Part shown: positions 21,409-46,891 of the stretch, piece by piece
Layout of the letters: each line of letters begins with the position of its first letter
Numbering within the stretch: position 1 is the first letter of the stretch
From: Alphaproteobacteria bacterium
GTDB lineage: Bacteria; Pseudomonadota; Alphaproteobacteria; Rs-D84
Direction of reading: 5' to 3'
Assembly (NCBI GenBank): GCA_017960855.1
Contig: JAGCYJ010000003.1
Coordinates: 4,686 to 68,685 of the forward strand
DNA length: 64,000 bases
The notes under the pieces: model-generated
Told to the model about the DNA's origin: nothing
The model's database searches: none
Seen by the model: the letters and a program-made list of their open reading frames with translations, nothing else
Position numbers and translations under genes: made by a program

Positions 21409-23388
21409 ATGGTTGAAAAAAATACACACACATATGACGCGTCTGATATCCAGGTCCTTGAGGGGCTGGAACCTGTTCGTCTGCGCCCTGGCATGTATAT
21501 TGGCGGCACGGATGAAAAGGCGTGGCATCATTTGCCGGTTGAAATCTTGGACAATTCCATTGACGAAGCGGTCGCCGGCTTTGCCAAGAAGATCTCTGTG
21601 GAACTGATTGACGCGAAAACCATTGAAATCACCGACGACGGTCGTGGTATTCCGGTTGATGAACACCCAAAATACCCTGGCAAATCCGCGTTAGAGGTTA
21701 TTTTAACCACTCTGCATTCGGGCGGTAAGTTTAACAATAATGTATATAAGACCAGTGGCGGTCTGCACGGTGTGGGCTCTGCGGTTGTGAACGCGTTGTC
21801 GCAAGAGATGATTGTGACTATTTCACGCGACGGCTATGAATGGCACCAGACCTTTTCCCGCGGTATCGCAACCAGCCCGATAAGTCGTGGCGCCGCGACC
21901 AAGGCACATGGTACCAAAATCCGCTTTACATTGGACGATGACATTTTCGGCGCAAATGCGGTATTCAAACCTATCAAGATTTATCGTATGGCGCGTGCCA
22001 AGGCGTTTCTGTCGCGTGGCGTCAAAATTGATTGGCGGTGCAATCCGTCATTATTGACCGACGACATGGGAATACCCGCCACCACAACATTTTATTATGC
22101 AAATGGTGTTGCGGACTTCTTGGCAGAAAAAACCGACACATCGCCCAAGATTTTGCCCCGTATATTCAGTGGCACCGTTGATTTCCCAGATGATGCTGGT
22201 CGTGTTGAATGGGCACTTACCATATTGACCGACGAAAATGGTGCGGCATCCGACGACGGGTTCTTTGCATCATACTGTAACACGATTGCGACCATTGACG
22301 GCGGCACCCACGAATCTGGATTTAAATCTGCTATTACCAAGGGGATCAAGGCATACGGCGAAAAAGTCAACAACAAGGCCGCAGCCAACATCATTGGTGA
22401 AGATGTTTTTGATTCCGTTGCGGCGATTGTGTCTGTGTTCTATAAAACACCACAGTTTTTGGGTCAGACCAAGGAAAAATTATCCAACCCAGAAATCGCA
22501 CGTTATACCGAAAACGCGCTACGCGACCCATGGGAAATGTTTTTGGCGTCGGACCCCAAGACCGCAAATGCTATTCTGGACTTTGTCATCAATTTGGCGA
22601 ACGCCCGTATCAAAACGAAACAGGTAAAGGAAATCGCCCGCAAAACCCCGACCAAGCGCGCACGTATGCCGGCGAAATTGGCGGACTGTTCCAAGCATGG
22701 TGTTGACGGAACCGAACTGTTTATTGTTGAGGGCGAATCCGCCGGTGGCACCGCGAAACAGGCACGCGATCGCGCAACCCAGGCAATTATGCCCCTGCGT
22801 GGCAAGGTGTTAAATGTTATGTCCAATTCCGACGAACGCTTTAACGCGAACAAGGAATTGAACGAACTTATTGATATTATCGGTGCTGGCACTGCGAAGG
22901 ATTGGGATGACACAAAACTGCGTTATGAAAAAATAATCGTCATGACTGATGCCGATGTTGACGGTTCGCATATTGCATCACTGCTGATGGCATTTTTCTA
23001 TCAGTATATGCCTCAACTGATTTATGGGGGACACTTATATCTGTCTTGCCCTCCACTTTATAAACTGACCTGTGGGACCGAATCGATTTATGTTGATTCT
23101 GACGAAGAATTAGAAGAATTAAAGAACGGCAAATACAAAAACAAGCGGGTTGAGATTTCGCGATTCAAAGGGCTTGGTGAAATGATGCCTAATCAGTTGA
23201 AAGAGACCACCATGTCACCAAAGACACGTCGTTTAATCCGTGTTGATTTGCCGCCAAAGACCGATGACGGAATGGAAGATACGGAAAAAACACGCACAAT
23301 CGTTTCTGAACTTATGGGTAAAAAGCCAGAGTTCCGATTCCGCTTCATTACCGAACACGCCCAGTTTGTGAAAGATTTGTTTGTTTAA
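21409..23388 (+). CDS. parE: DNA topoisomerase IV subunit B
   Basis: GHKL ATPase (EILDNSIDEA, DDGRGIP) and Toprim (EGESAGG, MTDADVDGSHI). A length of 659 aa fits ParE rather than GyrB (about 800 aa). Confidence 0.8.
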   Translation: MVEKNTHTYDASDIQVLEGLEPVRLRPGMYIGGTDEKAWHHLPVEILDNSIDEAVAGFAKKISVELIDAKTIEITDDGRGIPVDEHPKYPGKSALEVILTTLHSGGKFNNNVYKTSGGLHGVGSAVVNALSQEMIVTISRDGYEWHQTFSRGIATSPISRGAATKAHGTKIRFTLDDDIFGANAVFKPIKIYRMARAKAFLSRGVKIDWRCNPSLLTDDMGIPATTTFYYANGVADFLAEKTDTSPKILPRIFSGTVDFPDDAGRVEWALTILTDENGAASDDGFFASYCNTIATIDGGTHESGFKSAITKGIKAYGEKVNNKAAANIIGEDVFDSVAAIVSVFYKTPQFLGQTKEKLSNPEIARYTENALRDPWEMFLASDPKTANAILDFVINLANARIKTKQVKEIARKTPTKRARMPAKLADCSKHGVDGTELFIVEGESAGGTAKQARDRATQAIMPLRGKVLNVMSNSDERFNANKELNELIDIIGAGTAKDWDDTKLRYEKIIVMTDADVDGSHIASLLMAFFYQYMPQLIYGGHLYLSCPPLYKLTCGTESIYVDSDEELEELKNGKYKNKRVEISRFKGLGEMMPNQLKETTMSPKTRRLIRVDLPPKTDDGMEDTEKTRTIVSELMGKKPEFRFRFITEHAQFVKDLFV

Positions 23389-24602: not shown

Positions 24603-25871
24603 TTATTTATATTCCGCAATCATTTCATTGATTTGCGCATTTAACACCAAATCAGATGATAACTGCTTTTCAATTTGTTTTATCGCATACATAACCGTTG
24701 CATGATCACGACCACCAACATACTGACCAATTTCCGACAGTGATAATTTTGTTGCACCCTTTAATACAACCATCATTGTCTGACGAGCCAAGACCAATGA
24801 ACGATTGCGACCCGAACCACAAACCGCATCATATGATACACCCAATTTTTCGCACATATCGCGAACCATTGTGATCGGTGTTTTTGATTTCTTTAATGTG
24901 TCTGCCAACAAATGTTCCGCAACATCCATTGTTATGTTTGTGTTCATAAGTTCGGCAAACGCCTTTATCTTGGTGGCAACACCGGCAACCATGTGACCGT
25001 CCGCCGCAATACGCCCCGCCAACGCAGTTGCAATATCGGTTGGCACCCCCGCACGCATCAAGATTACACGTTTTACATCATCTGTTGGTGCAACAACATC
25101 TGCAACCAAGCCCGATGCAAATAACGATTGTGCGCGACGATCAAACCCAGTCAAATTGTTTGGTGTTGTTGTGGACGTCAAAACAATATTCTTGCCGGCA
25201 TTACGTAAGTCAATAACCAACTGCATAAATTCGTCCATCGTTGCACGCTTGCCGGCCAAGGCATTAACATCATCTAAAATAAAGGTATCACAATTACGGC
25301 AGAAATCTTTGAACGCGAAAATCTTGCCTTCACGCAAACTGCGCGTGAATTCAGAAACAAATCCACCGCCCGTCATCATAACAACGCGACCCGCCGATGC
25401 ATCACGAATACACCGCGCCAACAAAGTTTTACCACAACCCGGCGCACCGTAAATAAACAGCGGGCTAAATGAAACCGCACCCGCTGCAACCTTTTTACAT
25501 GCCGACAAAACAAAAGTGTTTTCCGCACATGATACAAATGCGTCAAACGCACACAAATCACACGCCGTTTGCACTGGTGTATATTTTTGAACAGAATTGT
25601 CATTTGCAATTGGTGTTGCAACCGCACCACGTACACATATATTTAATGCCAAACCGTATTCATTCGCAACCGCAGACAAAACGCCCGCATGTACTGATTT
25701 AATAAAGTCAGCCGAGAACTGATTCTGGGCAGACAATACCAATGTGTTATCAACAATCTGAAAGTTAAGTGGCGCAATCCAAGAAGTGAAACTAGCAGAA
25801 TCCATTTTTGCGGCGATGGCCCCCCGGATAGCATCCAAGTTAGTCATTTGTTTTGTTGCCGCTGTCTGCAT
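24603..25871 (-). CDS. dnaA: Chromosomal replication initiator DnaA
   Basis: AAA+ Walker A GAPGCGKT, Walker B FILDDV, and C-terminal HTH (LSLSEIGQYVGGRDHATVMYAIKQIE). Confidence 0.9.
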   Translation of the reverse strand: MQTAATKQMTNLDAIRGAIAAKMDSASFTSWIAPLNFQIVDNTLVLSAQNQFSADFIKSVHAGVLSAVANEYGLALNICVRGAVATPIANDNSVQKYTPVQTACDLCAFDAFVSCAENTFVLSACKKVAAGAVSFSPLFIYGAPGCGKTLLARCIRDASAGRVVMMTGGGFVSEFTRSLREGKIFAFKDFCRNCDTFILDDVNALAGKRATMDEFMQLVIDLRNAGKNIVLTSTTTPNNLTGFDRRAQSLFASGLVADVVAPTDDVKRVILMRAGVPTDIATALAGRIAADGHMVAGVATKIKAFAELMNTNITMDVAEHLLADTLKKSKTPITMVRDMCEKLGVSYDAVCGSGRNRSLVLARQTMMVVLKGATKLSLSEIGQYVGGRDHATVMYAIKQIEKQLSSDLVLNAQINEMIAEYK

Positions 25872-28932: not shown

Positions 28933-29193
28933 GTGGCAAATCATAAGTCATCTAAAAAAAGAATTTTGGTAACAGAAAAGAAAAACGCGGTCAATACTGC
29001 ACGTCGCAGTGCGGTTAAAACGGCTGTTAAGAAATCTGTTAAAGCGATTGAATCTGGCGACAAAGCGGCCGCAACAACCGCAACACGCGCAGCAGAAAGC
29101 AGATTGATGAAATCCGCTGGCAAGGTTATGCCAAAGAAACGCGCTGCTCGCAAGATTTCTCGTCTGACCAAGAAAGTTGCCAAAATGGCTTAA
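28933..29193 (+). CDS. rpsT: 30S ribosomal protein S20
   Basis: GTG start. MANHKSSKKRILVTEKKNAVNTARRS is typical of S20. 86 aa. Confidence 0.9.
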   Translation: MANHKSSKKRILVTEKKNAVNTARRSAVKTAVKKSVKAIESGDKAAATTATRAAESRLMKSAGKVMPKKRAARKISRLTKKVAKMA

Positions 29194-29267: not shown

Positions 29268-30272
29268 TTAGTTAAACCATACCCACACACGCCCAGTTGG
29301 TGGTGTACCAGCCGGTTGCGATGTTGGCACAGAATCAAACCGCGCATCATCACCCGCCGCAACAGTTGTTGACGTTGTTCCAACTGGCAAACGCGCAACA
29401 CTCATCGTTCCAGAAGTTATGTTTGCTGCATTTGTTTGATCAACATTTTGAACATTACCTAATCCAACATCACTATTGCTCAATGTCACATTACTTGATA
29501 ACGCATGACCTGCAACCGTTGTTGTCGTTGGAACATAACTGCCACTGGCCTGTTTGCCATCCAACGCTGTTTCCAGTTTTCCAATAGCAGCGTTTATTGT
29601 ATCAGCCGCCGCAATCGCACTAGTTGCGTTTGGTTTTGTATATCCGGTCAATGCTATATCAGCACCATCCAATGTGACATTTGAACTTAATGCTTCTCCA
29701 TTAACTGTTCTGGATGTTGGGACATAATCGGTCGATGCTGTATACGCCGCGGTGCCAAGCCCATGAACCGCAACATCTGTGCCATCAACCTTGATTGTAC
29801 CATTTGCGGTCCCTTCGGTCACAGATTCAACACCGGTGTCAATGTTGCCTATTGAACTCTTAACTTCATTAATTGCCGCAACGACGTTTGTTTTATCGGT
29901 TGTGGTCAAATTGCTTAATGTACCAACCAAACCAGCCGCGGTGCCGGTTGCATCCGCCCCAACATCCGAAGCCGTCAATGTAATATCGGAACTTAATGCC
30001 TTGGAATTAACTGTGCGACTTGTTGGAACCGCACCAACATCCGCTGCTGTGGTCGGCACTGTGATGTTTATTGCCTTATCAACAGATGCATTTGCGGTAA
30101 ACGTATCAACCGTGGTTCCGTTCTTCTGAATCGTTAACACAGCATTGTTAACCGTTGGTGGTTCTAAACTTGAAATAATAGATTGAACATACTGCACACT
30201 GGCGATATCAGCGTGCGCTGTGGAAACGATTCCACAGACCAAACCAAATAAGATAATACGAACCGGTTTCAT
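29268..30272 (-). CDS. Sec-exported protein built from phage tail-fibre-type repeats
   Basis: Signal peptide MKPVRIILFGLVCGIVSTAHA. Three copies of VPT(S/T)RTVNxxALSSxxTLxxxDxG, plus ITSGTMSVARLP and AAGDDARF motifs familiar from phage tail fibres. Confidence 0.65.
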   Translation of the reverse strand: MKPVRIILFGLVCGIVSTAHADIASVQYVQSIISSLEPPTVNNAVLTIQKNGTTVDTFTANASVDKAINITVPTTAADVGAVPTSRTVNSKALSSDITLTASDVGADATGTAAGLVGTLSNLTTTDKTNVVAAINEVKSSIGNIDTGVESVTEGTANGTIKVDGTDVAVHGLGTAAYTASTDYVPTSRTVNGEALSSNVTLDGADIALTGYTKPNATSAIAAADTINAAIGKLETALDGKQASGSYVPTTTTVAGHALSSNVTLSNSDVGLGNVQNVDQTNAANITSGTMSVARLPVGTTSTTVAAGDDARFDSVPTSQPAGTPPTGRVWVWFN

Positions 30273-35937: not shown

Positions 35938-36975
35938 ATGCACGCAATGATATTCTTTCTGCTGTTGTTGGGGTTCTTTTGGGTGGCACGTTCTATATTT
36001 ATACCGTTCTTAATCGCACTGTTTTTGTGGTACATGATGAATGTTATCGCCGATGGTTTCAGACAGTTTATGCCATACTATAAACACCCTTCGGTTATGG
36101 GACGTATGCTTGATTGGATATCACGCATTTTGTCCATTGGTGCAATTTGTTTTGTCTTCTATTTATTCGCGACACATATTAAGCCAATGTTTGCGCAATT
36201 ACAAACGACGCTGCCGGTATTACAAGAAAGATTATTATCGGCAATGGGATATATATCTGGCTTGTTGGGAATTTCTTTTGATATGAATTTATTACCAAAC
36301 TTTGCACAAATTGCTGCAACCGTTGGCGCATCTGCTGCTGGTATTGCCGCATCTGTCGGTATGATTGTGATTTACATTTTGTTTCTATTTTTGGAACAAG
36401 AAACATTTGGAAACAAGATTAAAAACCTGTTTGCTAACAAACGCCAATCCAAGAAATATGCGTACATTATTGAAAGCGTTGATAGAAATATGAAACGCTA
36501 CTTATTTATGAAAACAATTATTTCTGGGCTGACTGGATTAAGCGCTTATGTTTTGTTGCGTGTGCTTGGATTAGAATTCGCTGGCGCTTGGGCATTTATG
36601 ATATTCATATTAAACTATATTCCAACGCTGGGTTCCATTATGGCATGCGCATTACCAATCTTGTTTGCATTGGCAACGGGCTCATCTTTTGAATTGGTAT
36701 TCTTTACCTCTGTTGGCTTAATTGGCCTTGAAATATTGTTTGGCAATATATTGGATCCAAAACTTACCGGCAAGGCATTAAATCTTTCCACACTTGCTAT
36801 TTTAATAAACTTGGTATTTTGGGGAATGATATGGGGTGTTGTCGGAATGTTCCTAAGTGTTCCATTATTGATGATTATATTCATCATAGCTGCCCAGTTT
36901 GATTCAACGCGTCCGCTTGCCGTTTTATTATCTGCAAATGGAAACATACCAGACATTCGTGGCGACGAAGAATAA
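35938..36975 (+). CDS. AI-2E (PerM/YhhT, UPF0118) family transporter
   Basis: 345 aa with about 8 TM helices. Motifs NYIPTLGS and GMIWGVVGMFLSVPL are typical of AI-2E. Confidence 0.75.
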   Translation: MHAMIFFLLLLGFFWVARSIFIPFLIALFLWYMMNVIADGFRQFMPYYKHPSVMGRMLDWISRILSIGAICFVFYLFATHIKPMFAQLQTTLPVLQERLLSAMGYISGLLGISFDMNLLPNFAQIAATVGASAAGIAASVGMIVIYILFLFLEQETFGNKIKNLFANKRQSKKYAYIIESVDRNMKRYLFMKTIISGLTGLSAYVLLRVLGLEFAGAWAFMIFILNYIPTLGSIMACALPILFALATGSSFELVFFTSVGLIGLEILFGNILDPKLTGKALNLSTLAILINLVFWGMIWGVVGMFLSVPLLMIIFIIAAQFDSTRPLAVLLSANGNIPDIRGDEE

Positions 36976-36983
36976 TATAAAAT

Positions 36984-37029
36984 AAAAACGCGCTATGTGC
37001 TTTTATTCCTGTACATAGCGCGTTTTTTA
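36984..37029. terminator. Bidirectional terminator, second full copy of the conserved hairpin family (AI-2E gene / ruvX)
   Basis: AAAAACGCGCTATGTGC, 10-nt loop, GTACATAGCGCGTTTTTTAT. Confidence 0.75.
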
Positions 37030-37039
37030 TACCCTATTT

Positions 37040-37477
37040 TTATAATCTGTTTATAACCGCGATTGCATTTTCCAAAATTATTCGTGCGGATTCAGAATCC
37101 AGTTTTTCTTTCACTTCTTTTACCGTACGTAATTTGCTTTCTTCACTGGCACTGCTGCTGGTCAAAGTTTCATCGATAAAACAGATTGGCAAGTCAGTAT
37201 ATTTTGCGATCTGCCCCGCCACTTCACGAACCATCTTCGTCGTTTCTGATTCTGTGCCATCTGTCCGCAGGGGCAACCCCACCACAATTCCAACAACACG
37301 TTCAGCAACCGCTAAATCCGCCATTTGTTTCGCCATATCGCCACCAACAATCGGCGGACGAGCAAAGGTAAAATCGCGCTTTTCATCAGAAATGGCAACA
37401 CCTGTGCGCCGTGCGCCCCAGTCAAACCCAATAATGCGTCCCACGCGTGGAAAATCCTTGAAATCGGGCATAATCAT
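37040..37477 (-). CDS. ruvX: Holliday-junction-resolvase-like pre-16S rRNA nuclease RuvX (YqgF)
   Basis: IIGFDWGARRTGVAISD and GLPLRTDGTES motifs. Start at 37477 or 37471. Confidence 0.85.
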   Translation of the reverse strand: MIMPDFKDFPRVGRIIGFDWGARRTGVAISDEKRDFTFARPPIVGGDMAKQMADLAVAERVVGIVVGLPLRTDGTESETTKMVREVAGQIAKYTDLPICFIDETLTSSSASEESKLRTVKEVKEKLDSESARIILENAIAVINRL

Positions 37478-37485
37478 TGTATAAT
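37458..37485 (+). promoter_or_regulatory. Sigma70-like promoter for gatC and downstream genes
   Basis: TTGAAA (37458-63), 16-nt spacer, TATAAT (37480-85). It lies over the divergent ruvX start codon. Confidence 0.5.
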
Positions 37486-37515
37486 CAACCTCTGGACTTA
37501 ATAATAGGATGTAAA

Positions 37516-37812
37516 ATGGCATTTAGCAAGGAACAATTACATAAATTTGCGGACCTTATTCACATTGATATTCCGGATGAAAAATTGGCATCTATGGACA
37601 TTGATTCCGTTATTGATTGGCTGGATAAATTACAGAAAATTGACACAACTGGGGTTGAACCAATGTTGAATCCGGCATCACACGACTTGCCACGTCGCGC
37701 CGATGTTGTGACCGACAATGCTCCACGTGCAGACATATTGAAAAACACACCCGATACTGCTGGTGTATCACGTGGCTATTTCGCAGTGCCCAAGGTTATG
37801 GATGGTGAATAG
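37516..37812 (+). CDS. gatC: Asp/Glu-tRNA amidotransferase subunit C
   Basis: 98 aa. LIHIDIPDEKL...VEPMLNP...RAD pattern of GatC. ATG at 37516 follows AGGATG. Confidence 0.85.
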   Translation: MAFSKEQLHKFADLIHIDIPDEKLASMDIDSVIDWLDKLQKIDTTGVEPMLNPASHDLPRRADVVTDNAPRADILKNTPDTAGVSRGYFAVPKVMDGE

Positions 37813-37814
37813 GT

Positions 37815-38435
37815 ATGAGCAAGGGTCACAAAATAAATTTTTATCGTTCAAGTAAAGTACCGTATGCAAATCCGTATGCATATCGCAAACCTGCTTCGCT
37901 ATATCCAAAATCCAAACTGACAACACAGAAAAGTGAAAAAACATCAACAAAAACTATCGAGCATCAACAAAAACCGGTATCAGCAATATCTTATAGTGAA
38001 AAAGCATCAACAAAAACCATTGAGCAACCAAAAAAACCGGTATCAGTGATATCTTATGTTGAATCATTTGTTGAAGAAGAAGAATACACAGCATCACAAA
38101 CAAGCAAGAATATCGTTTCGCTAAATGGTCGGTTTCTGCACATTAGGGATGGCTATACTACTATTCAAAATCTTACGAATTTAGCAAAAACCATGGAACC
38201 CGAACCACAATCATGCATACGGGCGATTGAATATGTGTTGGATAACGGCACCTTTGTATTGATAACCGAATTCAATATGAAAACAAAATGCACAGATTGG
38301 ATGGATGAGCCATCAGATGAAACAAAACAGAAACTGTGTCGTAAATTTTCGTGTGCCGGTGAATGTATCGATGCAGATATGCGCAAGATTTTGGCACTAA
38401 TATTACCTGAAACATATGGAACCACACAGAGATAA
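37815..38435 (+). CDS. Basic protein of unknown function (gat-cluster insert A), contains 2x21-aa repeat
   Basis: 206 aa, starting 2 nt after the gatC stop. N-terminus is K/T/Q-rich with YAYRKPASLY. Tandem SEK(T/A)STKTIE...KPVS(A/V)ISY. Cys-containing C-terminal domain. No signal peptide or TM helix. Confidence 0.5.
   Translation: MSKGHKINFYRSSKVPYANPYAYRKPASLYPKSKLTTQKSEKTSTKTIEHQQKPVSAISYSEKASTKTIEQPKKPVSVISYVESFVEEEEYTASQTSKNIVSLNGRFLHIRDGYTTIQNLTNLAKTMEPEPQSCIRAIEYVLDNGTFVLITEFNMKTKCTDWMDEPSDETKQKLCRKFSCAGECIDADMRKILALILPETYGTTQR
37932..38057 (+). repeat. 2 x 63-bp in-frame tandem repeat inside insert A
   Basis: AGTGAAAAAACATCAACAAAAACTATCGAGCATCAACAAAAACCGGTATCAGCAATATCTTAT versus AGTGAAAAAGCATCAACAAAAACCATTGAGCAACCAAAAAAACCGGTATCAGTGATATCTTAT. 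Confidence 0.9.
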
Positions 38436-38439
38436 ATAG

Positions 38440-39051
38440 ATGAAAAAAATACCGCAAAAAACTCTTAATCGTTTAGACAAACTAAAAGCACAAACAGATG
38501 TGCTAAACCGTGATTTCCAAAATGACATCTGGGCATTGCAAAAGAAATATAATATCACAGATAAACATTTTGATTATGACTATGATAACTGGGTGCAAAA
38601 TGATTATGACTTTCAAGACGATTTTGCAGAATTGTATCACGAACATGACCGTAAATATCAAATGGCTTTGGCACAATGGGCGGCACTGTTTCTGATTGCG
38701 ACAAATATCGCACGTCGTGGAAAACCATTACACCCCGATGTTGCAATACAAAAATTATCAAAAATGGGCAACAGTCGCACGACTATGACCATAACAGACA
38801 TGATAGATATGCCGGTTCTTCGGCCGATGGTTGGAGATTCTGAACCATTCTTGGCCAACGAATTATATTACACATATGGTGTTGTGTTGATGGACTCGTA
38901 TTTGGCTAATCGGGTAAAACAAAAAATCACCCACTATTCAGCCATACCATGGCAACAGAAAAAGGCGCAACATTACAAAAACTTTCTGAAGAAGTTTCAC
39001 AAGTCGGTGTTAGCACCAAAATTTGACCAACGCGAATACGAACATTTTTAA
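38440..39051 (+). CDS. Protein of unknown function (gat-cluster insert B)
   Basis: 203 aa, starting 4 nt after insert A. Acidic DYDYDNWVQNDYDFQDDF patch followed by a basic C-terminus. No recognised motif. Confidence 0.5.
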   Translation: MKKIPQKTLNRLDKLKAQTDVLNRDFQNDIWALQKKYNITDKHFDYDYDNWVQNDYDFQDDFAELYHEHDRKYQMALAQWAALFLIATNIARRGKPLHPDVAIQKLSKMGNSRTTMTITDMIDMPVLRPMVGDSEPFLANELYYTYGVVLMDSYLANRVKQKITHYSAIPWQQKKAQHYKNFLKKFHKSVLAPKFDQREYEHF

Positions 39052-39073
39052 TCACGAAAGATAGGAAGAGCAA

Positions 39074-40540
39074 ATGATTGATTTAACAATACACGAAGCA
39101 TTGGAAAAATTAAAGAGCGGTGAAATAAGCGCGACCGAATTGACGCGTGCATATATTGATCGTATTGAAAAATATGGCGACGAATTAAATTGCTATATCA
39201 CACGCACCCCTGAACGCGCATTGGCGGATGCGGCGGTGGCAGATGAACATTATAAAAACGGTACCGCACGTGCACTTGAAGGGATTCCAATCGGTATGAA
39301 GGATTTATTTGCCACACGTGGTATTCGCACAACGGCGGCGTCCCGAATGCTGGAAAACTTTGTCCCTGAATACGAATCCACTGTTTCACAAAAATTCATT
39401 GATTCTGGTTCTGTTCTGTTGGGTAAAACGAATTTGGATGAATTCGCAATGGGAACATTCAGCAAGACATCTTATTTCGGCGCACCGGTTAATCCGTGGC
39501 AATTGGAACGCAAATTAACGGCGGGCGGTTCGTCTGGCGGTTCTACATCAGCCGTTGCTGGTGGTTTATGCATGGGCGCGACGGGAACCGACACCGGTGG
39601 TTCAATTCGTTTCCCATCTGCGATTACTGGTCTGGTTGGTATGAAACCAACATACGGTTTGTGCTCTCGTTGGGGCTGTGTTGCATTCGCATCAAGTTTA
39701 GATACCCCAGGGGCAATCGCACGCACGACCGATGATGCAGCACTGATGTTATCGGTTATGGCGGGTCATGATCCCAAGGATTCAACCAGCGAAGATGCCG
39801 GATTTAATGTACATACACCACTTGACCCAATTTTGGGAAATGGTAAAAAATTACGCGTCGGGGTTATTCGTGAATTGAACGATGTCAAAATTTCTGACGA
39901 TATGAAAAAGTTATTCAACGACCGTGTTGCTGATTTAAAATCTGCGGGCGCTGAAATAGTAGAGGTTTCAATTCCAAACATTTTGGATGCATTGGCGGCA
40001 TACTACATTATTGCTCCAGCAGAGGCGTCATCTAACCTTGCCCGTTATGATGGTATGCGCTATGGATTGCGGGTTGAGGGTTCCGATTTAATTGACACAT
40101 ATAACAAGACACGTGCAGCGGGATTTGGAACTGAAGTACAACGCCGTATGATTGTTGGAACAGCTGTGTTGTCCAGTGAATCTTATGAAGTTTATTTCAT
40201 GCAGGCCGCACGTGTTCGTCGCATGATATCGGACAGTTTTAATGCCGCATTTAAACAATGTGATTTGATTGTTTGCCCAACAAGCGCAGGAACCGCACAA
40301 CCATTGGATGCGGATTTGACACCATTGGAATATTATGCGTTGGATATGTTTACCGTCGCAATGAATTTGGCGGGCATTCCGGCATGCAGTGTTCCGGCGG
40401 GAATGGCCACGAACGGTCTGCCATTGGGCATGCAGGTTGTTGGGAATCGTTTTGACGATTTGCGCGTGATGCAGTTGGCAAAACACATTGAACAATTCGC
40501 CGGCGTTGATAATCGCCCAACAAAAATTATGGGGAAATAA
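39074..40540 (+). CDS. gatA: Glutamyl-tRNA(Gln)/Asp-tRNA(Asn) amidotransferase subunit A
   Basis: Amidase signature GGSSGGSTSAVA...GTDTGGSIRFPSA. 488 aa. Confidence 0.95.
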   Translation: MIDLTIHEALEKLKSGEISATELTRAYIDRIEKYGDELNCYITRTPERALADAAVADEHYKNGTARALEGIPIGMKDLFATRGIRTTAASRMLENFVPEYESTVSQKFIDSGSVLLGKTNLDEFAMGTFSKTSYFGAPVNPWQLERKLTAGGSSGGSTSAVAGGLCMGATGTDTGGSIRFPSAITGLVGMKPTYGLCSRWGCVAFASSLDTPGAIARTTDDAALMLSVMAGHDPKDSTSEDAGFNVHTPLDPILGNGKKLRVGVIRELNDVKISDDMKKLFNDRVADLKSAGAEIVEVSIPNILDALAAYYIIAPAEASSNLARYDGMRYGLRVEGSDLIDTYNKTRAAGFGTEVQRRMIVGTAVLSSESYEVYFMQAARVRRMISDSFNAAFKQCDLIVCPTSAGTAQPLDADLTPLEYYALDMFTVAMNLAGIPACSVPAGMATNGLPLGMQVVGNRFDDLRVMQLAKHIEQFAGVDNRPTKIMGK

Positions 40541-40541
40541 A

Positions 40542-41009
40542 ATGAATCCGTATCGCGAATTAAGCAACTTTATAATTACAAATATTTATAAACAATTGCA
40601 AAAAAAAGGCCCACTTACTTTATTTGACCTAAAACACATGGTTGCTGGTGCACTTTGGGAAGAGAAGCAAAAGAAGAAATCCAAAATAGATAGAAACTTT
40701 GCTTTGCACAGGTATTCTGTATACCGCAAACGTTGGATATCACTAATGGATTATTGTTTAGGCGCCCAAGAATCGGCGGGTTTTTTACGAAAACAACCCT
40801 GCGAAGTTCCACCTACGGCTACGTATTTTGAAGACAGTGCTATTCTATATTCGATTACGGATGCAGGGCTTACACAGTTGAAAAACTCTTCCCCAGATTC
40901 TATGTTTGGTGCCGCCCAACAAGTAATTCATTCACGTGCGGAACAAATGTTAAAATGCAGAGTAATTCAAACAAGGAAACATTATGATTTAATAACGAAA
41001 AAAAGGTAA
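40542..41009 (+). CDS. Basic protein of unknown function (gat-cluster insert C), possibly winged-helix-like
   Basis: 155 aa. ATG lies 1 nt after the gatA stop and follows GGGGA. The pattern GPLTLFDLKHMV...FLRKQP...ILYSITDAGLTQL loosely resembles a PadR-type wHTH. This is a weak call made by eye. Confidence 0.4.
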   Translation: MNPYRELSNFIITNIYKQLQKKGPLTLFDLKHMVAGALWEEKQKKKSKIDRNFALHRYSVYRKRWISLMDYCLGAQESAGFLRKQPCEVPPTATYFEDSAILYSITDAGLTQLKNSSPDSMFGAAQQVIHSRAEQMLKCRVIQTRKHYDLITKKR

Positions 41010-41015
41010 AAAAAA

Positions 41016-41091
41016 TGGTGGCTAGGAACGGAATCGAACCGCTGACACAGGGATTTTCAGTCCCTTGCTCTACCAACTGAGCTACCTAGCC
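41016..41091 (-). tRNA. tRNA-Phe (anticodon GAA)
   Basis: The reverse complement GGCTAGGTAGCTCAGTTGGTAGAGCAAGGGACTGAAAATCCCTGTGTCAGCGGTTCGATTCCGTTCCTAGCCACCA folds as a cloverleaf. It has a 7-bp acceptor stem, anticodon loop CT-GAA-AA, a GTTCGATTC T-loop and an encoded CCA. Confidence 0.95.
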
Positions 41092-41101
41092 AACGGACGC
41101 C

Positions 41102-41130
41102 ATAATAGGATACGAAAAACGAAAAAGCAA
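41102..41130 (-). promoter_or_regulatory. Promoter for tRNA-Phe, overlapping the gatB RBS on the other strand
   Basis: Minus strand reads TTGCTT, 17-nt spacer, TATTAT. The -10 element ends 10 nt before the mature tRNA 5' end. Confidence 0.45.
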
Positions 41131-41142
41131 GGAAAAAGAAAA

Positions 41143-42663
41143 ATGTTTACAATAAAAGGCAAAACAGGTGAATGGGAAGTTGTTGTTGGGTTGGAAACTC
41201 ATATAGAGGTCTTGTCCAATTCAAAATTGTTCAGTGGCGCATCTGCGGACTATAATCCGACCGTTGCCCCGAACACCCAGGTTTCTATGGTTGATGCGGC
41301 TATGCCGGGTATGTTGCCGGTATTAAATGATTACTGTGTCGACCAAGCGATTAAATTCGGTTTAGGGATAAACGCCGAAATATCACACAAAAGCAAGTTT
41401 GCCCGTAAACAGTATTTTTACCCTGACCTGCCCCAAGGATACCAAATTTCACAGCCAGCCGAAGAACCACCGGTTGTCGGTCGTGGCTATGTTGAAATCA
41501 TCGGCGACGATGGTAATCCTAAAAAGATATTTATTGAACGCGCCCACATGGAACAAGACGCCGCAAAGAATAAACACGATATGCACCCGTCAAAATCTTT
41601 TGTTGATTTGAATCGTTCGGGGGTTATGTTGCTGGAAATCGTCACTTTCTTGGACACAAAAAATCCAGAAAATAATTCATATATTACATCACCTGACGAA
41701 GCGGAAAGATACCTGCGTGAAATTCGTGAAATCGCGCGCGCACTGGGCGTATCCAAAGCGAACATGGAAGAAGGATCCATGCGCGCCGATGTTAATGTTT
41801 CTGTGCGTCCGGTCGGCGAAAAAACTTTCCGTACGCGTACCGAAACAAAAAACATGGTATCGTTTAAATTTATTAAATCTGCAATTGAATACGAAGCGCG
41901 TCGTCAAATTGAAGTATATGAAAATGGTGGCGAAGTCACCCAAGACACTATGCGCTATCACCCGGACGAAGGTATCACAACTGTTATGCGTTCCAAAGAA
42001 AACGCACTGGATTATCGTTATTTCCCAGATCCAGATTTGTTGCCGTTGATTATCACCGACGAACGCATTGAACGTATACGCAAAACTATGCCGGAATTGC
42101 CGGCGGCGACCCGCACGCGCTATATTGAAAAATATGGACTCTCGGAATATGATGCAACACGTCTTACCGAAACAACCGATATTTCGCATTGGTTTGATGC
42201 CGCGGTTGGTGATAAAACCGCACGTGCAAAACCAATTGCGAACTGGATGATTTCGGAACTGTTTGCGCATCCTGAAAACTATGATATCGAAAATCAAAAA
42301 TCTGGTGTCGTTGATGGCATGCGTATTATCACACCAACAGATTTAGCCGAATTGGTTGACATGATTGCAGCAAACGAAATCAACGGAAAGCAAGCCAAAG
42401 AAATCTTTATCAAAATGTTAGACGGCGAAACAGGCACCCCGCATGAAATTGCTGATAAATTTGGTATGAAGCAAATCACCGATACATCGGCAATAGAATC
42501 GGCGGTTGATGAAGTTATCAAAAACAATCCAGCCCAGGTTGAACAGTATAAATCTGGCAAGGTTGGATTACTTGGCTTCTTTGTTGGTAATGTTATGAAG
42601 GCAACAGCCGGTAAAGCAAACCCAGCAGTTGTAAATGAATTATTGCGTAAAAAATTAGGATAA
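41143..42663 (+). CDS. gatB: Asp/Glu-tRNA amidotransferase subunit B
   Basis: MFTIKGKTGEWEVVVGLETHIEV start and QYFYPDLPQGYQISQ motif. The track ORF start (41065) overlaps the tRNA and is rejected. ATG at 41143 follows AAGGAAAAAG. Confidence 0.95.
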   Translation: MFTIKGKTGEWEVVVGLETHIEVLSNSKLFSGASADYNPTVAPNTQVSMVDAAMPGMLPVLNDYCVDQAIKFGLGINAEISHKSKFARKQYFYPDLPQGYQISQPAEEPPVVGRGYVEIIGDDGNPKKIFIERAHMEQDAAKNKHDMHPSKSFVDLNRSGVMLLEIVTFLDTKNPENNSYITSPDEAERYLREIREIARALGVSKANMEEGSMRADVNVSVRPVGEKTFRTRTETKNMVSFKFIKSAIEYEARRQIEVYENGGEVTQDTMRYHPDEGITTVMRSKENALDYRYFPDPDLLPLIITDERIERIRKTMPELPAATRTRYIEKYGLSEYDATRLTETTDISHWFDAAVGDKTARAKPIANWMISELFAHPENYDIENQKSGVVDGMRIITPTDLAELVDMIAANEINGKQAKEIFIKMLDGETGTPHEIADKFGMKQITDTSAIESAVDEVIKNNPAQVEQYKSGKVGLLGFFVGNVMKATAGKANPAVVNELLRKKLG

Positions 42664-42666
42664 AAA

Positions 42667-42819
42667 ATGTATCGTTCAGCAAAAGAAGATCATGCACGCG
42701 TAAAACTTGCTTCAAAGCAAAATAGCGTTGCACAAAAGCAAAACAAATATCAACGAGCATTTACTAATGCTAAAATTGCCCAGCGCAATCGTGGTATCAA
42801 CAGATCAAAACATAGATAA
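42667..42819 (+). CDS. Possible 50-aa highly basic small protein (gat-cluster insert D)
   Basis: Below the track cutoff and translated by hand: MYRSAKEDHARVKLASKQNSVAQKQNKYQRAFTNAKIAQRNRGINRSKHR. ATG lies 3 nt after the gatB stop, with AGGAT upstream. Confidence 0.3.
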   Translation: MYRSAKEDHARVKLASKQNSVAQKQNKYQRAFTNAKIAQRNRGINRSKHR

Positions 42820-42837
42820 TAATAAGAAGGTAGAATA

Positions 42838-43335
42838 ATGGACGATTCCGTAGCAGAACTAGACATACATAAAATCCTTAAAACACCAGCACTTATCATT
42901 GCAGAATTAAAAGAAGAAGCGGCAAAGAGCAAAAAGCCACAGCCAGTAGAACATACTGTTGTTGTGCATGTGCCATTGCCAAAATCTATGGAACACATCA
43001 GGATTAAACCAACAGAATCTATTCCGTCTATTAAATATCCTGTTGTGATTTTAACACCGTTGCTTTCGGCACAACAAATATCAGTGCCCGAAATCGAGAT
43101 TCCAGAGATAGATATAGAGAAGATATATAATCTTTTTCATCAAGAACCAAAAAAATTTATTCTGTTGGCTTCGTACAAATATCGCAAACCAGCTATTTAT
43201 GCTAAAACGGCACAACTGTATGCGAACTCCAAGTGGATAAACAAAAGAGAGAGAATGTTGCACGCACGGTTTTTACGTGCAAAATTAAAACATCGTAAAC
43301 ACATGCACTGTATCGTAAGAATTGACTCAAAATAA
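42838..43335 (+). CDS. Basic protein of unknown function (gat-cluster insert E)
   Basis: 165 aa with RBS GAAGG. Contains YKYRKPAIYA (also present in insert A) and a basic tail RFLRAKLKHRKH. Confidence 0.45.
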   Translation: MDDSVAELDIHKILKTPALIIAELKEEAAKSKKPQPVEHTVVVHVPLPKSMEHIRIKPTESIPSIKYPVVILTPLLSAQQISVPEIEIPEIDIEKIYNLFHQEPKKFILLASYKYRKPAIYAKTAQLYANSKWINKRERMLHARFLRAKLKHRKHMHCIVRIDSK

Positions 43336-43351
43336 AAGGAAGGTAAGAAAA

Positions 43352-44023
43352 ATGAAATTAGTAAATAACCCGATTACAGGTGTAACATATATTCCGACAG
43401 AAGGACACCCTGGTACTGTGACTCGGGTAAAACGTGCAAAACCACAAGAAGCGGCAGTTCAAACACCAGATGCCACAGGAACACAAACTGGTAAATCACG
43501 TCAAAAAACACCAGCAAAAAAACATGCAACAACACAACAACATGTTGCCCCTAAAAAAACTAAAAAACCGGCTCGCGAAAGTTTAAATGTGTCATGTAAA
43601 ATAGTGACAACGGCACCATCAAAAAATCCCGTTACTGTTCGTTATGCCCGCAAAAGAACGTTGGCAATGAAAGAGCATCGCAAAGCCAAACAGATTCTGC
43701 AAACCATGCCTTTTACGCAGCCAACAGAACTTGATTATTCAGAAAAACTTGAACAGTTTTGGAACAAAGCGACAACAAAAATGAATAATCTTAAACGCAC
43801 TTTGTACCTTATACTAACATATCCAGATATAACAACGAACAAAAACACACCAAAAGATTTGTCAGAAATGCTGAACTCTCTGTTGCAAATATATAATTCC
43901 ATAAACCAATTGCCAAATATTTCTAAAAACACGAAGAAAAAGATGCGGTATGTTGTATACAGCACGATAATGGTAACACGAAACACACGCAAGATTCTGC
44001 TTGCAAACAGAAAAACTAGATAA
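43352..44023 (+). CDS. Basic protein of unknown function (gat-cluster insert F), histone-H1-like low-complexity segment
   Basis: 223 aa with strong RBS AGGAAGG. TPAKKHATTQQHVAPKKTKKPA stretch. No TM helix or signal peptide. Confidence 0.45.
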   Translation: MKLVNNPITGVTYIPTEGHPGTVTRVKRAKPQEAAVQTPDATGTQTGKSRQKTPAKKHATTQQHVAPKKTKKPARESLNVSCKIVTTAPSKNPVTVRYARKRTLAMKEHRKAKQILQTMPFTQPTELDYSEKLEQFWNKATTKMNNLKRTLYLILTYPDITTNKNTPKDLSEMLNSLLQIYNSINQLPNISKNTKKKMRYVVYSTIMVTRNTRKILLANRKTR

Positions 44024-44030
44024 CAACAAA

Positions 44031-45332
44031 ATGCAGAAATACTTTATTCAAACTTTTGGTTGTCAAATGAACGTCTATGACGGATGGCGCATTGCCACCA
44101 TGCTGAACGCGCGTGGTATGGTTCAAACAAATGATGTGGCGGATGCGGATATCATTATTTTGAACACGTGCGCCGTTCGTGCAAAAGCGACGGATAAAGT
44201 ATATTCTGCATTGGGTCGTATTCGTCTGATTAAAAAGCCCGATGCTATAATGGGCATTGTTGGTTGTGTTGCACGTGAATCTGGCGCAGATGCATTCCGC
44301 CGTGTTCCTGATTTGAATTTTGTTTTGGGACCCCAAAGTTATCATAAATTACCCGAGATATTTGAAAACCCAGACACACGTTTATTGAATATTGATCTGG
44401 GCGGTTTGGAAAAGTTTGATGAAATGCCCCAGATGGAAAAGTCGCCACTGGTAACCTATATTCCAATTCAAGAGGGTTGCAATCATTGTTGTACATACTG
44501 TATTGTGCCATATACCCGCGGTCGTGAAATATCGCGCGCTTTTGCCGATTGTGTTCGTGATACCGAATTGGCGGCAAATACCGGTGCAGTGGAAATCTGT
44601 TTCTTGGGTCAAAATGTTAACGGCTATAAATACACAGATGAAGACGGAAAAGTGTATCGCCTGTCTGATTTAATTCGTGCTGCTGCAAAACTAGACACAG
44701 TGAAACGCATTCGCTTTACATCCAGTTATCCAACCGAAATGACGGATGATTTGATTGATATGTTCGCGACGGAACCCAAATTATTACCGTTCTTGAATAT
44801 GCCGATTCAAAGCGGTTCACCCGATGTTCTGCGCCGTATGAACCGTCCATACGATTTAGATCAGTATATGTGCATTGTTAAAAAACTTAAACAAGCGCGT
44901 CCAGATATTCAAATATCATCTGATTTTATTGTCGGTTTCCCTGGCGAAACAGATTCTGATTTTGAACAAACACTTCAAATCGCACGAACCGTTAAATACA
45001 TCAATTCTTATTCATTCAAGTATTCGCCCCGCCCCCATACCGCTGCGGCAATTATGCCGGATCAGATTCCTGAAAATATTAAATCAAAACGGTTAGCTGT
45101 TCTGGACGCAGAACTTAATGAAATTCAACGTGCGTTTAATGAATCTTGTGTTGATAAAACCCTGATGTGTTTATGTGAAGGTCCCGACAAGACCGGTCGT
45201 CATTTGGTATATCGCACCCCATATATGCAACAATGCATTGTCGCAAAGCCAGACGGCGAACCAAAACAAATGTGCAACATCAAAATCACCGCCGCAAACA
45301 AGGCATCACTGCGCGGAAAAATCGTTGATTAA
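44031..45332 (+). CDS. miaB: tRNA-i6A37 methylthiotransferase MiaB
   Basis: FIQTFGCQMNVYD N-terminal cluster, radical-SAM CNHCCTYC, and a TRAM-like C-terminus. Confidence 0.9.
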   Translation: MQKYFIQTFGCQMNVYDGWRIATMLNARGMVQTNDVADADIIILNTCAVRAKATDKVYSALGRIRLIKKPDAIMGIVGCVARESGADAFRRVPDLNFVLGPQSYHKLPEIFENPDTRLLNIDLGGLEKFDEMPQMEKSPLVTYIPIQEGCNHCCTYCIVPYTRGREISRAFADCVRDTELAANTGAVEICFLGQNVNGYKYTDEDGKVYRLSDLIRAAAKLDTVKRIRFTSSYPTEMTDDLIDMFATEPKLLPFLNMPIQSGSPDVLRRMNRPYDLDQYMCIVKKLKQARPDIQISSDFIVGFPGETDSDFEQTLQIARTVKYINSYSFKYSPRPHTAAAIMPDQIPENIKSKRLAVLDAELNEIQRAFNESCVDKTLMCLCEGPDKTGRHLVYRTPYMQQCIVAKPDGEPKQMCNIKITAANKASLRGKIVD

Positions 45333-46891
45333 AATCTAAATCGTCCATTTAGTGCGACACTAAACGACATTCCAAACACATCATCATGAACGACCGCTAT
45401 GTGCATGTCACCGCCGGCCGCATCAAATACAGACCATGCGGACACACCAAATCCCACACCAAAAGTTTTATCTGTTTGAATAAGTGCACGCGCAATATAA
45501 TCGTATCGCAAACCAGCAAATTCATAACCGTATTTAAAATCAGCACCACCACCTGCAAATAATTTTGTATCGTCACAATCTAATACACCGACATATTTTT
45601 CGCCAACCGTTATAAACGGCGACACATTATATCCACCCGACAAATTAAACTGATGACCGTATTCACCAATCGCATATAAATAGGTACCGTCTGGGTTATT
45701 GGTCGCGCCACGCCCGTTAAACACCGGACCAACATTAAAATATGTCTTATTTGCCCCAACATGCACTCGAACAAAATCATCATTGTCCACATCATATTGG
45801 GCATCTAACCCGCCACCCAAAGACCGACCTGTATATTCATTGATATCGTCTGAACGATCGATATTCATAAAATAACCTGATAATTCCAGATGCAGATTAT
45901 TATACGGGTTTATTTTGACACTTGGTTGAATTCCACTAAGCGCCACATCTGACGAATATACAAAAAAAGGTTTTAGCCCCAACACAACGCCCTTCTCTAT
46001 ATACATTGATTCCAACATTTTATGTGAATACATTAAAGATACTGGTTCCATCAGTTTGATTGGATTGGTGCGAACACTGTCCGACAAAATACCGTTTATT
46101 TCACTCATCGTTTGCGCACGATCTAGTTTAGAAAACAATTTATTATCCGTACCAGACGCACGCAAATCGTTCAAGAACCGCCCCTTGTCATTTTTCAATA
46201 TCCGCGCATAATCAGTTGAACGAACCAATCGAACAAAGATATCATTATCGACCTTGTATGTCTGAAACACATGCAACACGTCCAGTGCATCAGAATCAAC
46301 ATATACAACACCATCGCCAGTTGCATTTAAAAACAATAGAAGCGGACTATTAACCACACTATCAAAACTTAAGATCACATCACCCGATAAATATATATTC
46401 TCCGGCGCATTAAAATCATACATATTACCAACGGAAAATCTGGCATTAGTAAAACTGACTGAATCTGCGTGCGCCGCAAGTTGCGTAATATTATTTAAAT
46501 CAATCCCGTTCGCATCACGCACCGCAATATCATAACCAGAATTTAATCCGATATCGGTGGCACTCGCATTTGAACTTATAACTTGGACAAAGTGCGCCCC
46601 GCTCTGCAACGACACATTTGCACCGAACACACCGGTGTTTTCCAATTCTACGGTGCAATTAGCACAAACATTAACAGTGCCCGCTATTTCACCAAAATTA
46701 AAGATATGTAAATTATCAACAACCTTGATATCGTGCGCTTCGAACAATACCCCGTCATGAACTGTAATATCTTCGTATACTGTAAAATCCGCATCACTAA
46801 TCGTATTCCCCGTCAAGTCCAACGATTTTGCATTGTTGGAAATACCGCCCAAAAACACAGAAATCACGAAAAGATGCGCCAGATTTTTCAT
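45329..46891 (-). CDS. Autotransporter (type Va) outer-membrane protein
   Basis: 520 aa. Signal peptide, repetitive N/G/V-rich passenger, and a C-terminal beta-domain of about 270 aa ending in GRFRF. Its stop overlaps the miaB stop (convergent genes). Confidence 0.6.
   Translation of the reverse strand: MKNLAHLFVISVFLGGISNNAKSLDLTGNTISDADFTVYEDITVHDGVLFEAHDIKVVDNLHIFNFGEIAGTVNVCANCTVELENTGVFGANVSLQSGAHFVQVISSNASATDIGLNSGYDIAVRDANGIDLNNITQLAAHADSVSFTNARFSVGNMYDFNAPENIYLSGDVILSFDSVVNSPLLLFLNATGDGVVYVDSDALDVLHVFQTYKVDNDIFVRLVRSTDYARILKNDKGRFLNDLRASGTDNKLFSKLDRAQTMSEINGILSDSVRTNPIKLMEPVSLMYSHKMLESMYIEKGVVLGLKPFFVYSSDVALSGIQPSVKINPYNNLHLELSGYFMNIDRSDDINEYTGRSLGGGLDAQYDVDNDDFVRVHVGANKTYFNVGPVFNGRGATNNPDGTYLYAIGEYGHQFNLSGGYNVSPFITVGEKYVGVLDCDDTKLFAGGGADFKYGYEFAGLRYDYIARALIQTDKTFGVGFGVSAWSVFDAAGGDMHIAVVHDDVFGMSFSVALNGRFRF

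Follow-up and report, generated by a model that had tools for sequence, protein, structure and literature searches.

The window analysed here, a 64-kb stretch of contig JAGCYJ010000003.1, contains a gatC-gatA-gatB-miaB operon in which six open reading frames (ORFs), here called O1 to O6, are placed between the conserved genes. The anchors gatC (37516..37812, Pfam GatC on an identical contig, 62–100% identical across the clade), gatA (39074..40540, Pfam Amidase, 65–98% identical across the clade), gatB (41143..42663, Pfam GatB_N and GatB_Yqey) and the last operon gene miaB (44031..45332, Pfam UPF0004 and Radical_SAM) are all located on the + strand. The six ORFs, on the same strand, fill the three slots between them: O1 (37815..38435) and O2 (38440..39051) between gatC and gatA, O3 (40542..41009) between gatA and gatB, and O4 (42667..42819), O5 (42838..43335) and O6 (43352..44023) between gatB and miaB. 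As judged from comparison with about 170 related loci, no fewer than five of the six fall into families restricted to the clade, each of which is tied to one slot and inherited vertically. The preliminary description of this DNA had listed the six ORFs, with spacers of 1–22 nt and an antisense tRNA-Phe in the gatA-gatB gap, and all of these were found. The spacers between consecutive genes are 2, 4, 22, 1, 3, 18, 16 and 7 nt, and ARAGORN and Rfam (72.5 bits) both detect a tRNA-Phe(GAA) gene at 41016..41091 on the − strand. Independent gene calls on metagenome contigs with an identical locus give the same six genes with the same lengths.

The related loci were drawn from GTDB species genomes, anchored on GatA and taken with flanks of 6–10 kb, and are labelled with an L and a number. 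These GatA-anchored loci place the host clade among uncultured Candidatus Enterousia or related Rs-D84 Alphaproteobacteria of the rumen and gut, and the sister species, L085, has a GatA that is 98% identical to that of the window species. The window species is also present in the data sets ERZ27256983, ERZ28653446, SRR12529099 and SRR32285420. Candidatus Enterousia has genomes below 1 Mb and is predicted to depend obligately on partner cells (PMC12306168). In the related loci the GatC, GatA, GatB and MiaB domains are encoded on one strand and in this order, and the wider gene order ruvX(-), gatC, gatA, gatB, miaB, autotransporter-like gene(-) is kept throughout.

A purine run resembling a Shine-Dalgarno (SD) sequence is present upstream of most of the six ORFs, in agreement with the ribosomal binding sites proposed earlier. 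The sole strong promoter-like site of the + strand is located upstream of gatC at 37458..37485, with the sigma-70 type sequence TTGAAA-16-TATAAT (11 of 12 consensus matches), and from this consensus match only it is likely to be the operon promoter. No convincing + strand terminator was found inside the operon, and Rfam shows the tRNA-Phe alone in the inter-gene gaps, so that hidden RNA elements there were rejected. The short spacers, the SD-like sites, the single strong promoter-like site and the lack of an internal + strand terminator together point to one coupled transcript. Of 113 related loci, 110 have the antisense tRNA-Phe between gatA and gatB; those without it are the three most basal lineages, in which the two genes adjoin, and by this distribution the tRNA gene is therefore an old, fixed insertion. 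The gap holds the tRNA alone in 88 of 97 loci, and the ORFs of 57–76 aa seen there in other species are not genes but result from translating through the antisense tRNA gene.

All six ORFs are real genes that encode proteins, and the purifying selection on them is moderate. In each of them only the annotated frame has a positive codon-usage log-likelihood, that of the other frames being negative, with O3 as the weakest (the log-likelihood ratio of O5 is +0.24). L085 keeps all six in the same order, with lengths of 206, 215, 155, 50, 164 and 223 aa, and the indels between the two species are in multiples of three only. The matching gene calls, the frame-specific coding signal and the in-frame indels bear out the earlier opinion that the ORFs are unlikely to be noise. 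The genome had also been called AT-rich, which is too strong a term, as the window has about 42% GC and is only moderately so. The GC content of the inserts is similar to that of the surroundings, and the coding strand is A-rich (AT skew 0.19–0.29).

Compared with L085, the ratio of nonsynonymous to synonymous substitution rates (dN/dS) is 0.70 for O1, 0.30 for O2, 0.22 for O5 and 0.29 for O6, against 0.015–0.08 for neighbouring housekeeping genes. For O3 and O4 the two species have almost the same sequence, and O3 has a dN/dS of 0.33 when compared with the more diverged L090. Across the clade, the median values for the insert families presented below are 0.24 for A, 0.36 for C, 0.25 for fB, 0.25 for fB2, 0.29 for D, 0.21 for fB3, 0.26 for the O2-type and 0.15 for E, and those of the anchors gatA, gatB, gatC and miaB, computed identically, are 0.085–0.11. 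Pairwise dN/dS is below 1 everywhere it was measured. In the comparison with L085, tracts of about 99% nucleotide identity (37378–37677, 38126–38425, 39570–39719, 40470–41369 and 42570–42869) alternate with tracts of 85–91% identity, over housekeeping genes and inserts alike, which indicates that lineages of Enterousia often recombine homologously with one another. The near-identity of O3 and O4 is attributed to recent homologous recombination of this kind and not to special constraint or recent transfer, because the 99% tracts extend also over parts of gatA, gatB and the ruvX-gatC region.

Families of the inserted proteins

The ORFs found in the gaps were sorted into families by all-against-all comparison and iterated profiles. 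Searches of Pfam-A, NCBIfam, PHROGs and PADLOC with O1 to O6 gave best E-values of 0.0065–0.6, all far below the gathering cut-offs, and sequence searches of PDB gave no significant match. In public records the six carry only the annotation 'hypothetical', and no description of them was found in the Enterousia paper (PMC12306168) or in the transamidosome literature examined. By these searches O1–O6 are members of no known family, as had been supposed from the start, but they are not the single kind of basic protein for which they were first taken: at least five unrelated families with different architectures are represented.

O1 (206 aa) is a member of family A, and consists of a disordered, hypervariable N-terminal half and a C-terminal four-cysteine domain, the conserved motif of which had been overlooked in the preliminary description. 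The domain comprises about residues 106–203, with C134, C159, C175 and C184 invariant or near-invariant and with invariant Gly columns. The family has 88 members with the motif 'GKC.DEFIR.TLG..LFP..Y', and 19 of 102 loci carry two or three copies of it in tandem. Three tandem copies at 7413–8678 of L040, between ruvX and gatC, are the family's sole case outside the gatC-gatA slot. Zinc-ribbon and other metal-binding Cys4 domains have four Cys ligands, usually in paired CxxC knuckles. The cysteines of O1 are not arranged as CxxC pairs, and an AlphaFold2 (AF2) model with a predicted local distance difference test score (pLDDT) of 45–70 over the domain is too weak for judging their geometry. This model, made from a 37-sequence alignment and with a mean pLDDT of 42, predicts residues 1–105 to be disordered and gives the Cys domain, at low confidence, the order beta-alpha-beta-beta-alpha-alpha; Foldseek with the low-confidence model found no match below E=0.085. 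A tandem duplication of 63 nt (37932..38057, + strand, 2 copies, 87% match), which encodes a 21-aa repeat, lies in the N-terminal region. This region is essentially unalignable with that of L085, whereas the Cys domains of the two hardly differ.

In L032 the family A Cys domain is fused to RNA_pol_A_CTD, the C-terminal domain of the RNA polymerase alpha subunit (alpha-CTD; PF03118, 37.6 bits against a cut-off of 23.8), and in L053 a family A fusion matches the same domain with 21.4 bits, below the cut-off. Stand-alone alpha-CTD-like proteins are found in the gatC-gatA slot of five species (L018, L021, L027, L041 and L047), and together these slot neighbours and the one fusion score 37.6–41.4 bits. 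In the six ORFs of the window PF03118 was not found above cut-off, and the RNA polymerase alpha-CTD is thus related to them by slot neighbourhood and fusion in other species only. Profile matches of the family alignment A1 to RpoA entries in PDB stem from the alpha-CTD extensions of fused members and not from the Cys domain.

O2 (203 aa) belongs to an all-helical family of about 200 aa. An exhaustive HMMER search of 1.84 billion proteins, blind to genomic context, gave 47 clusters at 50% identity, sharing the conserved core 'FLIA.NIARRGKPLH', 'KYGV.LLD' and 'F.K.FHK' and, in many members, the C-terminus 'E.RPF'. Four of four distant members sampled (25–31% identity) are encoded between gatC and gatA, directly upstream of gatA. 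The protein evolves quickly, and its identity is only 47% in a pair of species that share 98% in GatA. The AF2 model of O2 is all-helical with a pLDDT of 93.5 and a predicted template modelling (TM) score, pTM, of 0.87, showing a long hairpin (residues 6–36 and 53–87) followed by a compact helical domain. With a known fold defined as a Foldseek match of E<=0.001 or TM>0.5 to a structure that has been solved or is a viral prediction, there is no significant neighbour in PDB (best E=0.92, TM 0.31) or in BFVD (best E=0.23, TM 0.24). A scan of the whole O2 family against curated families was negative, as was that of the fB family described below.

O3 (155 aa, or 173 aa from an alternative TTG start at 40488) begins 1 nt past the gatA stop codon, and by profile similarity it is a diverged member of family E. 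It matches the ORFs in the gatA-gatB slot of L117, L136, L137, L140 and L170 in hmmsearch (E=6e-6), and hhalign against family E gives 90% probability and E=1.5e-6 over 124 columns. One of the six, presumably this one, had been thought to look winged-helix-like, which could not be confirmed. Residues 74–143 show a weak similarity to PriB (primosomal replication protein N), but with E-values of 0.03–0.12 (best 0.034), all from one cluster of related PDB entries and without a Pfam match, it is below significance and was rejected; O3 joins the clade-specific slot family instead.

O4, a basic protein of 50 aa, is a probable member of family fB2 ('REM..EA.SKI...RTKHK'). It is similar to a protein in the same slot of L005 (phmmer E=6e-5) and to fB2 in a profile search (E=0.003) and in hhalign (E=0.002 over 47 columns), statistics that are weak given the short length but with which the position and the C-terminal tail agree. 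O5 (165 aa) is an orphan known only from the window species and L085, and no other homologue was found among the 15,879 ORFs of the related loci. Neither a diverged membership of family C nor homology to the middle ORF of L104 and L109 could be upheld, as hhalign and HMM searches were negative (score 13.1 against 11.8 ± 2.0 for shuffled sequences).

O6 (223 aa, or 233 aa from an alternative TTG start at 43322) is an expanded member of fB, a near-universal family of 55–60 aa encoded directly after gatB. It has an N-terminal 'NPITGV.Y' motif and a basic C-terminal tail with about 160 lineage-specific residues between them, and a net charge of about +36. The motif is the '(I/V)(T/L)G..Y' motif of fB, the invariant Gly included, and hhalign gives E=4e-5 and 70% probability over 15 columns. 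The plain full-length fB HMM does not detect O6, and the N-terminal link is seen only by profile-profile comparison and motif alignment. A 244-aa ORF in the same slot of L019 has a collinear similarity to O6 and likewise carries extra residues. Families fB, fB2 and C all end in 'RTKHK-stop', and this ending is conserved at the protein level with varying synonymous codons (His CAT 10 and CAC 8; Arg AGA/CGA/CGC/CGG), and for this reason a cassette end, a ribosomal binding site or any similar element of the DNA itself was rejected.

Slot variation and slot fidelity

The three gaps vary widely in length within the clade, from 1 to 2,502 nt between gatC and gatA, from 1 to 1,435 nt between gatA and gatB and from 8 to 1,860 nt between gatB and miaB. 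Compact slots, taken as those of 40 nt or less, make up 32 of the 102 between gatC and gatA and 7 of the 101 between gatB and miaB, and 67 of the 102 gatC-gatA slots hold 300 nt or more. Same-strand ORFs occupy more than 90% of the length of the expanded gaps. With 3,230 nt of insert in total, the window ranks third among 77 complete loci, the median being 1,098 nt. The preliminary description had held that a contiguous gatCAB in relatives, combined with a lack of purifying selection, would speak against its idea of new factors; the compact slots supply the first part of this, but the second does not hold, as selection on the inserts is clear.

Each family keeps to its own slot. In the gatC-gatA slot are found 84 of 87 family A members, the three exceptions lying just upstream of gatC in L040, as well as all O2-type (22/22) and alpha-CTD-like (9/9) proteins and 20 of 21 members of family D, and the gatB-miaB slot holds all members of families C (37/37), fB (68/68), fB2 (18/18) and fB3 (19/19). 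The presence of fB or fB3 is old and widespread, since one or the other occurs in 75 of 101 gatB-miaB slots, including those of lineages with only 73–77% GatA identity. Relatives with 91–98% identical GatA carry different insert combinations. In these comparisons the families change by tandem duplication, domain fusion, internal repeat growth, divergence and loss, and each species carries a different combination, with the window species having among the largest loads. The earlier suggestion of a lineage-specific gene set within a constitutive operon is borne out.

Longer ORFs that do not belong to the small basic families are also present in some slots (L029 11625–12871, L122 5288–5989, L031 13253, L030 13672 and L050 11430), among them a NUDIX hydrolase, a family of 233–238 aa common to L029 and L122, and a 437-aa ORF.

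Possible roles of the inserted proteins

Taken together, the six ORFs are accessory genes within what is apparently a single transcription unit, gatC-gatA-(antisense tRNA-Phe)-gatB-miaB, and are not mobile DNA. The reading that we favour, with some hesitation, is that they encode dispensable, fast-evolving adaptors for GatCAB, MiaB or tRNA, which we hold to be possible, short of probable. By sharing an mRNA and by translational coupling the products would be made together with GatC, GatA, GatB and MiaB, and would serve the tRNA-handling machinery as non-catalytic adaptors. Contacts to tRNA or enzyme subunits would be made through the basic tails in O4 and O6, the hairpin of helices in O2 and the four-cysteine domain in O1, and such binding could aid assembly or substrate hand-over in an organism that would be dependent on the indirect Asn/Gln-tRNA pathway, each product being helpful and individually dispensable. 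An adaptor role is favoured because of the apparent co-transcription and coupling together with the confinement of many unrelated families to one operon, and the strict slot fidelity strengthens the idea, put forward in the preliminary description, of tRNA- or transamidosome-associated factors. Features of a binding type, namely the cysteines of O1, the alpha-CTD-like neighbours and fusions, the positive charge, the 'RTKHK' tail and the helical hairpin of O2, would count in the same direction.

Several points weigh against adaptors. What links the ORFs to GatCAB, MiaB or tRNA is their position alone, and the slot fidelity could simply come from birth in place without means of moving. Domains of the alpha-CTD-like kind suggest DNA or RNA polymerase no less than tRNA, and the structural model of O1 is of low confidence. 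Close relatives differ, O2 being missing in L089 and L090 and O5 being found only in the window species and L085, and besides the many compact slots there are species, such as L043 and L060, with no inserts except the tRNA; the inserts are dispensable on evolutionary timescales. They evolve 2–4 times faster than the anchor genes. With a NUDIX hydrolase (Pfam 21.4 bits) in the operon slot of some lineages, the slots also take in cargo for which a connection with GatCAB is improbable.

On the same facts it is conceivable, although on the whole unlikely, that the ORFs are hitch-hikers in the operon, that is functional proteins born in the slots and unrelated to GatCAB and MiaB, for example ones that bind DNA, the nucleoid or RNA polymerase or that act on partner or host cells. 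The operon would supply constant expression, the composition is very basic, loss is frequent and in some species complete, and unrelated cargo (the NUDIX hydrolase and other family-less ORFs) lies in the slots of L029–L031, L050 and L122. Purifying selection shows that there is a function but not which. The helix-hairpin-helix proteins of alpha-CTD-like type that other species have in the gatC-gatA slot, alone or in fusions, fit here, and they give indirect support to an early idea of nucleoid-type proteins. A role towards other cells would suit the predicted dependence of Enterousia on partner cells (PMC12306168). This explanation leaves unaccounted for the confinement of many unrelated families to one operon over the history of the clade, and the fact that the O2-type is always directly before gatA and the fB-type directly after gatB. 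Elsewhere in the window ORFans are much sparser than in the operon, which also counts against mere hitch-hiking.

The rapid turnover, the copy-number variation, the hypervariable N-terminus of O1 and the identity of only 47% for O2 where GatA is 98% identical would be expected of a conflict module, and the transamidosome is a documented toxin target, as Tse8, a type VI secretion system (T6SS) toxin, poisons GatCAB assembly (bioRxiv 10.1101/733030). The proteins might accordingly shield GatCAB assembly from GatA-mimicking toxins such as Tse8, or be exported themselves with 'RTKHK' and 'E.RPF' as C-terminal recognition tails, short tails that are conserved at the protein level across unrelated families. 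We regard this as distinctly unlikely. The dN/dS values are below 1 throughout, albeit as pairwise and not site-wise estimates, signal peptides and secretion-system genes were not seen in the window, there is no PADLOC match and no toxin-like partner gene, and part of the mosaic divergence is ordinary homologous recombination, which is found in the gat genes also. A combined form of these ideas is something of a long shot: a hypervariable, built-in layer of transamidosome- or tRNA-binding proteins, turned over by conflict or by adaptive tuning of Asn/Gln mistranslation. Such proteins would form a new class of modulators, specific to each species, of the indirect aminoacylation pathway, with at least one new fold, that of the O2 family, and with a four-cysteine domain, likewise new, as the partner of alpha-CTD-like modules.

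That the ORFs are spacers, translated for the sake of coupling and of avoiding Rho-dependent polarity and with an amino-acid sequence that does not matter, is very improbable. The extremely tight junctions would fit, as would the disordered, repeat-bearing and unalignable segments such as residues 1–84 of O1 and the lack of relatives of O5, and the A-rich coding strand alone would give products rich in Lys, Asn, Thr and Gln. However, every family has a dN/dS in the range 0.15–0.36, the cysteines of O1 are invariant, the fold of O2 is confidently predicted from a diverse alignment, and motifs are conserved across lineages with 73–100% GatA identity. The inserts also persist in a genome of less than 1 Mb, although the compact state is evidently reachable by deletion. 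The idea is largely refuted for the C-terminal domain of O1 and for O2, O3, O4 and O6, and may apply to some linker segments.

Remnants of mobile elements, in the form of phage or plasmid genes, integron-like cassettes or an island at the tRNA-Phe, are scarcely credible: O3 does abut the 3' end of the tRNA-Phe, a classic integration site, and the slot content varies between species, but PHROGs and PADLOC, phage and plasmid records (searched with O3, O5 and O6) and IMG/VR contigs (searched for the O2 family) gave no match, no integrase, transposase, secretion-system or phage gene is present among the otherwise ordinary housekeeping genes of the 64-kb window, no direct or inverted repeats flank the insert boundaries, the GC content does not stand out and each family sits in one slot. 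The assignment to phage or plasmid families that had been named as a possible refutation was not found, and neither was one to a defence family.

Adaptors of the kind we favour have functional precedents, by analogy, in accessory proteins of the indirect aminoacylation machinery, and the families themselves are new. Hp0100 (QueH) of H. pylori is described as an accessory of the Asn-transamidosome that stimulates GatCAB and nucleates a stable complex (PMC8406222). It resembles the proposed role in being a lineage-restricted extra protein that acts with GatCAB in an organism with indirect aminoacylation; none of the ORFs has a Pfam or NCBIfam match, so no sequence relationship is detected. Hp0100 is not known to be encoded inside the gatCAB operon, whereas the Enterousia proteins are embedded in it, fall into many unrelated families that vary between species, and are known here from sequence alone. 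SepCysE is described as the bridging subunit of the archaeal transsulfursome SepRS-SepCysE-SepCysS, and is likewise a small, lineage-specific, non-catalytic scaffold of a tRNA-dependent amino-acid conversion (PMC5688128). It differs from the ORF products in being archaeal, in acting in another pathway and in having no detectable homology to them, and its interaction is experimental where theirs is inferred. GatC and GatF, the small third subunits that stabilise the GatA/GatB complexes of the GatCAB and GatFAB enzymes, are also small proteins encoded with or acting on GatA/GatB. In the window, however, a canonical, highly conserved gatC is present, and the inserts are additional to it and show no similarity to GatC.

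The wider region and implications

The operon lies in a region with dnaN (12357–13475), gyrB (21409–23388) and dnaA (24603–25871), all within 14 kb of one another, and the window is therefore probably near the chromosomal replication origin. Upstream of the operon, between the convergent AI-2E transporter gene and ruvX, a hairpin at 36967–37039 with sub-threshold Rfam miRNA-like matches on both strands is probably a bidirectional terminator. On the other side a 520-aa gene at 45329–46891 on the − strand, convergent with miaB and without a Pfam match, ends in '...GRFRF', which is typical of outer-membrane beta-barrel or autotransporter proteins. It is very fast-evolving, with 24–50% identity where MiaB is 67–93% identical. 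A small, very basic ORF is also found outside the gatCAB-miaB operon, at 28933–29193 on the + strand and upstream of secretin/TcpQ genes; it has 86 aa and a net charge of +22, lacks a Pfam match and is called as a gene on an identical contig too. Beside the secretin gene there is a 334-aa ORFan (29268–30272, − strand) in place of which the close relative L086 has ORFs of 525 and 60 aa (441–2216), and this site is another variable locus within an otherwise syntenic region.

Most bacteria cannot do without GatCAB, a drug target that also determines the rate of mistranslation, and its operon is usually compact. In this clade, with genomes below 1 Mb, up to about 3.6 kb is spent on genes between gatC, gatA, gatB and miaB. 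A slot-bound and quickly evolving gene set found throughout a clade, within a core translation operon of a minimal genome and with a confidently folded protein that lacks a structural neighbour, would come as a surprise to specialists; ORFans as such are common in metagenome-assembled genomes. Should the ORF products bind GatCAB or its tRNAs, the transamidosome would have a component of a new, species-specific kind, and the clade would offer a natural experiment in the birth, duplication, fusion and loss of accessory subunits; the novelty would be considerably greater if a binding or conflict role is true. If instead they have nothing to do with GatCAB, they still add at least nine protein families that had not been characterised before, and essential operons may be seen as nurseries for new genes in reduced genomes.

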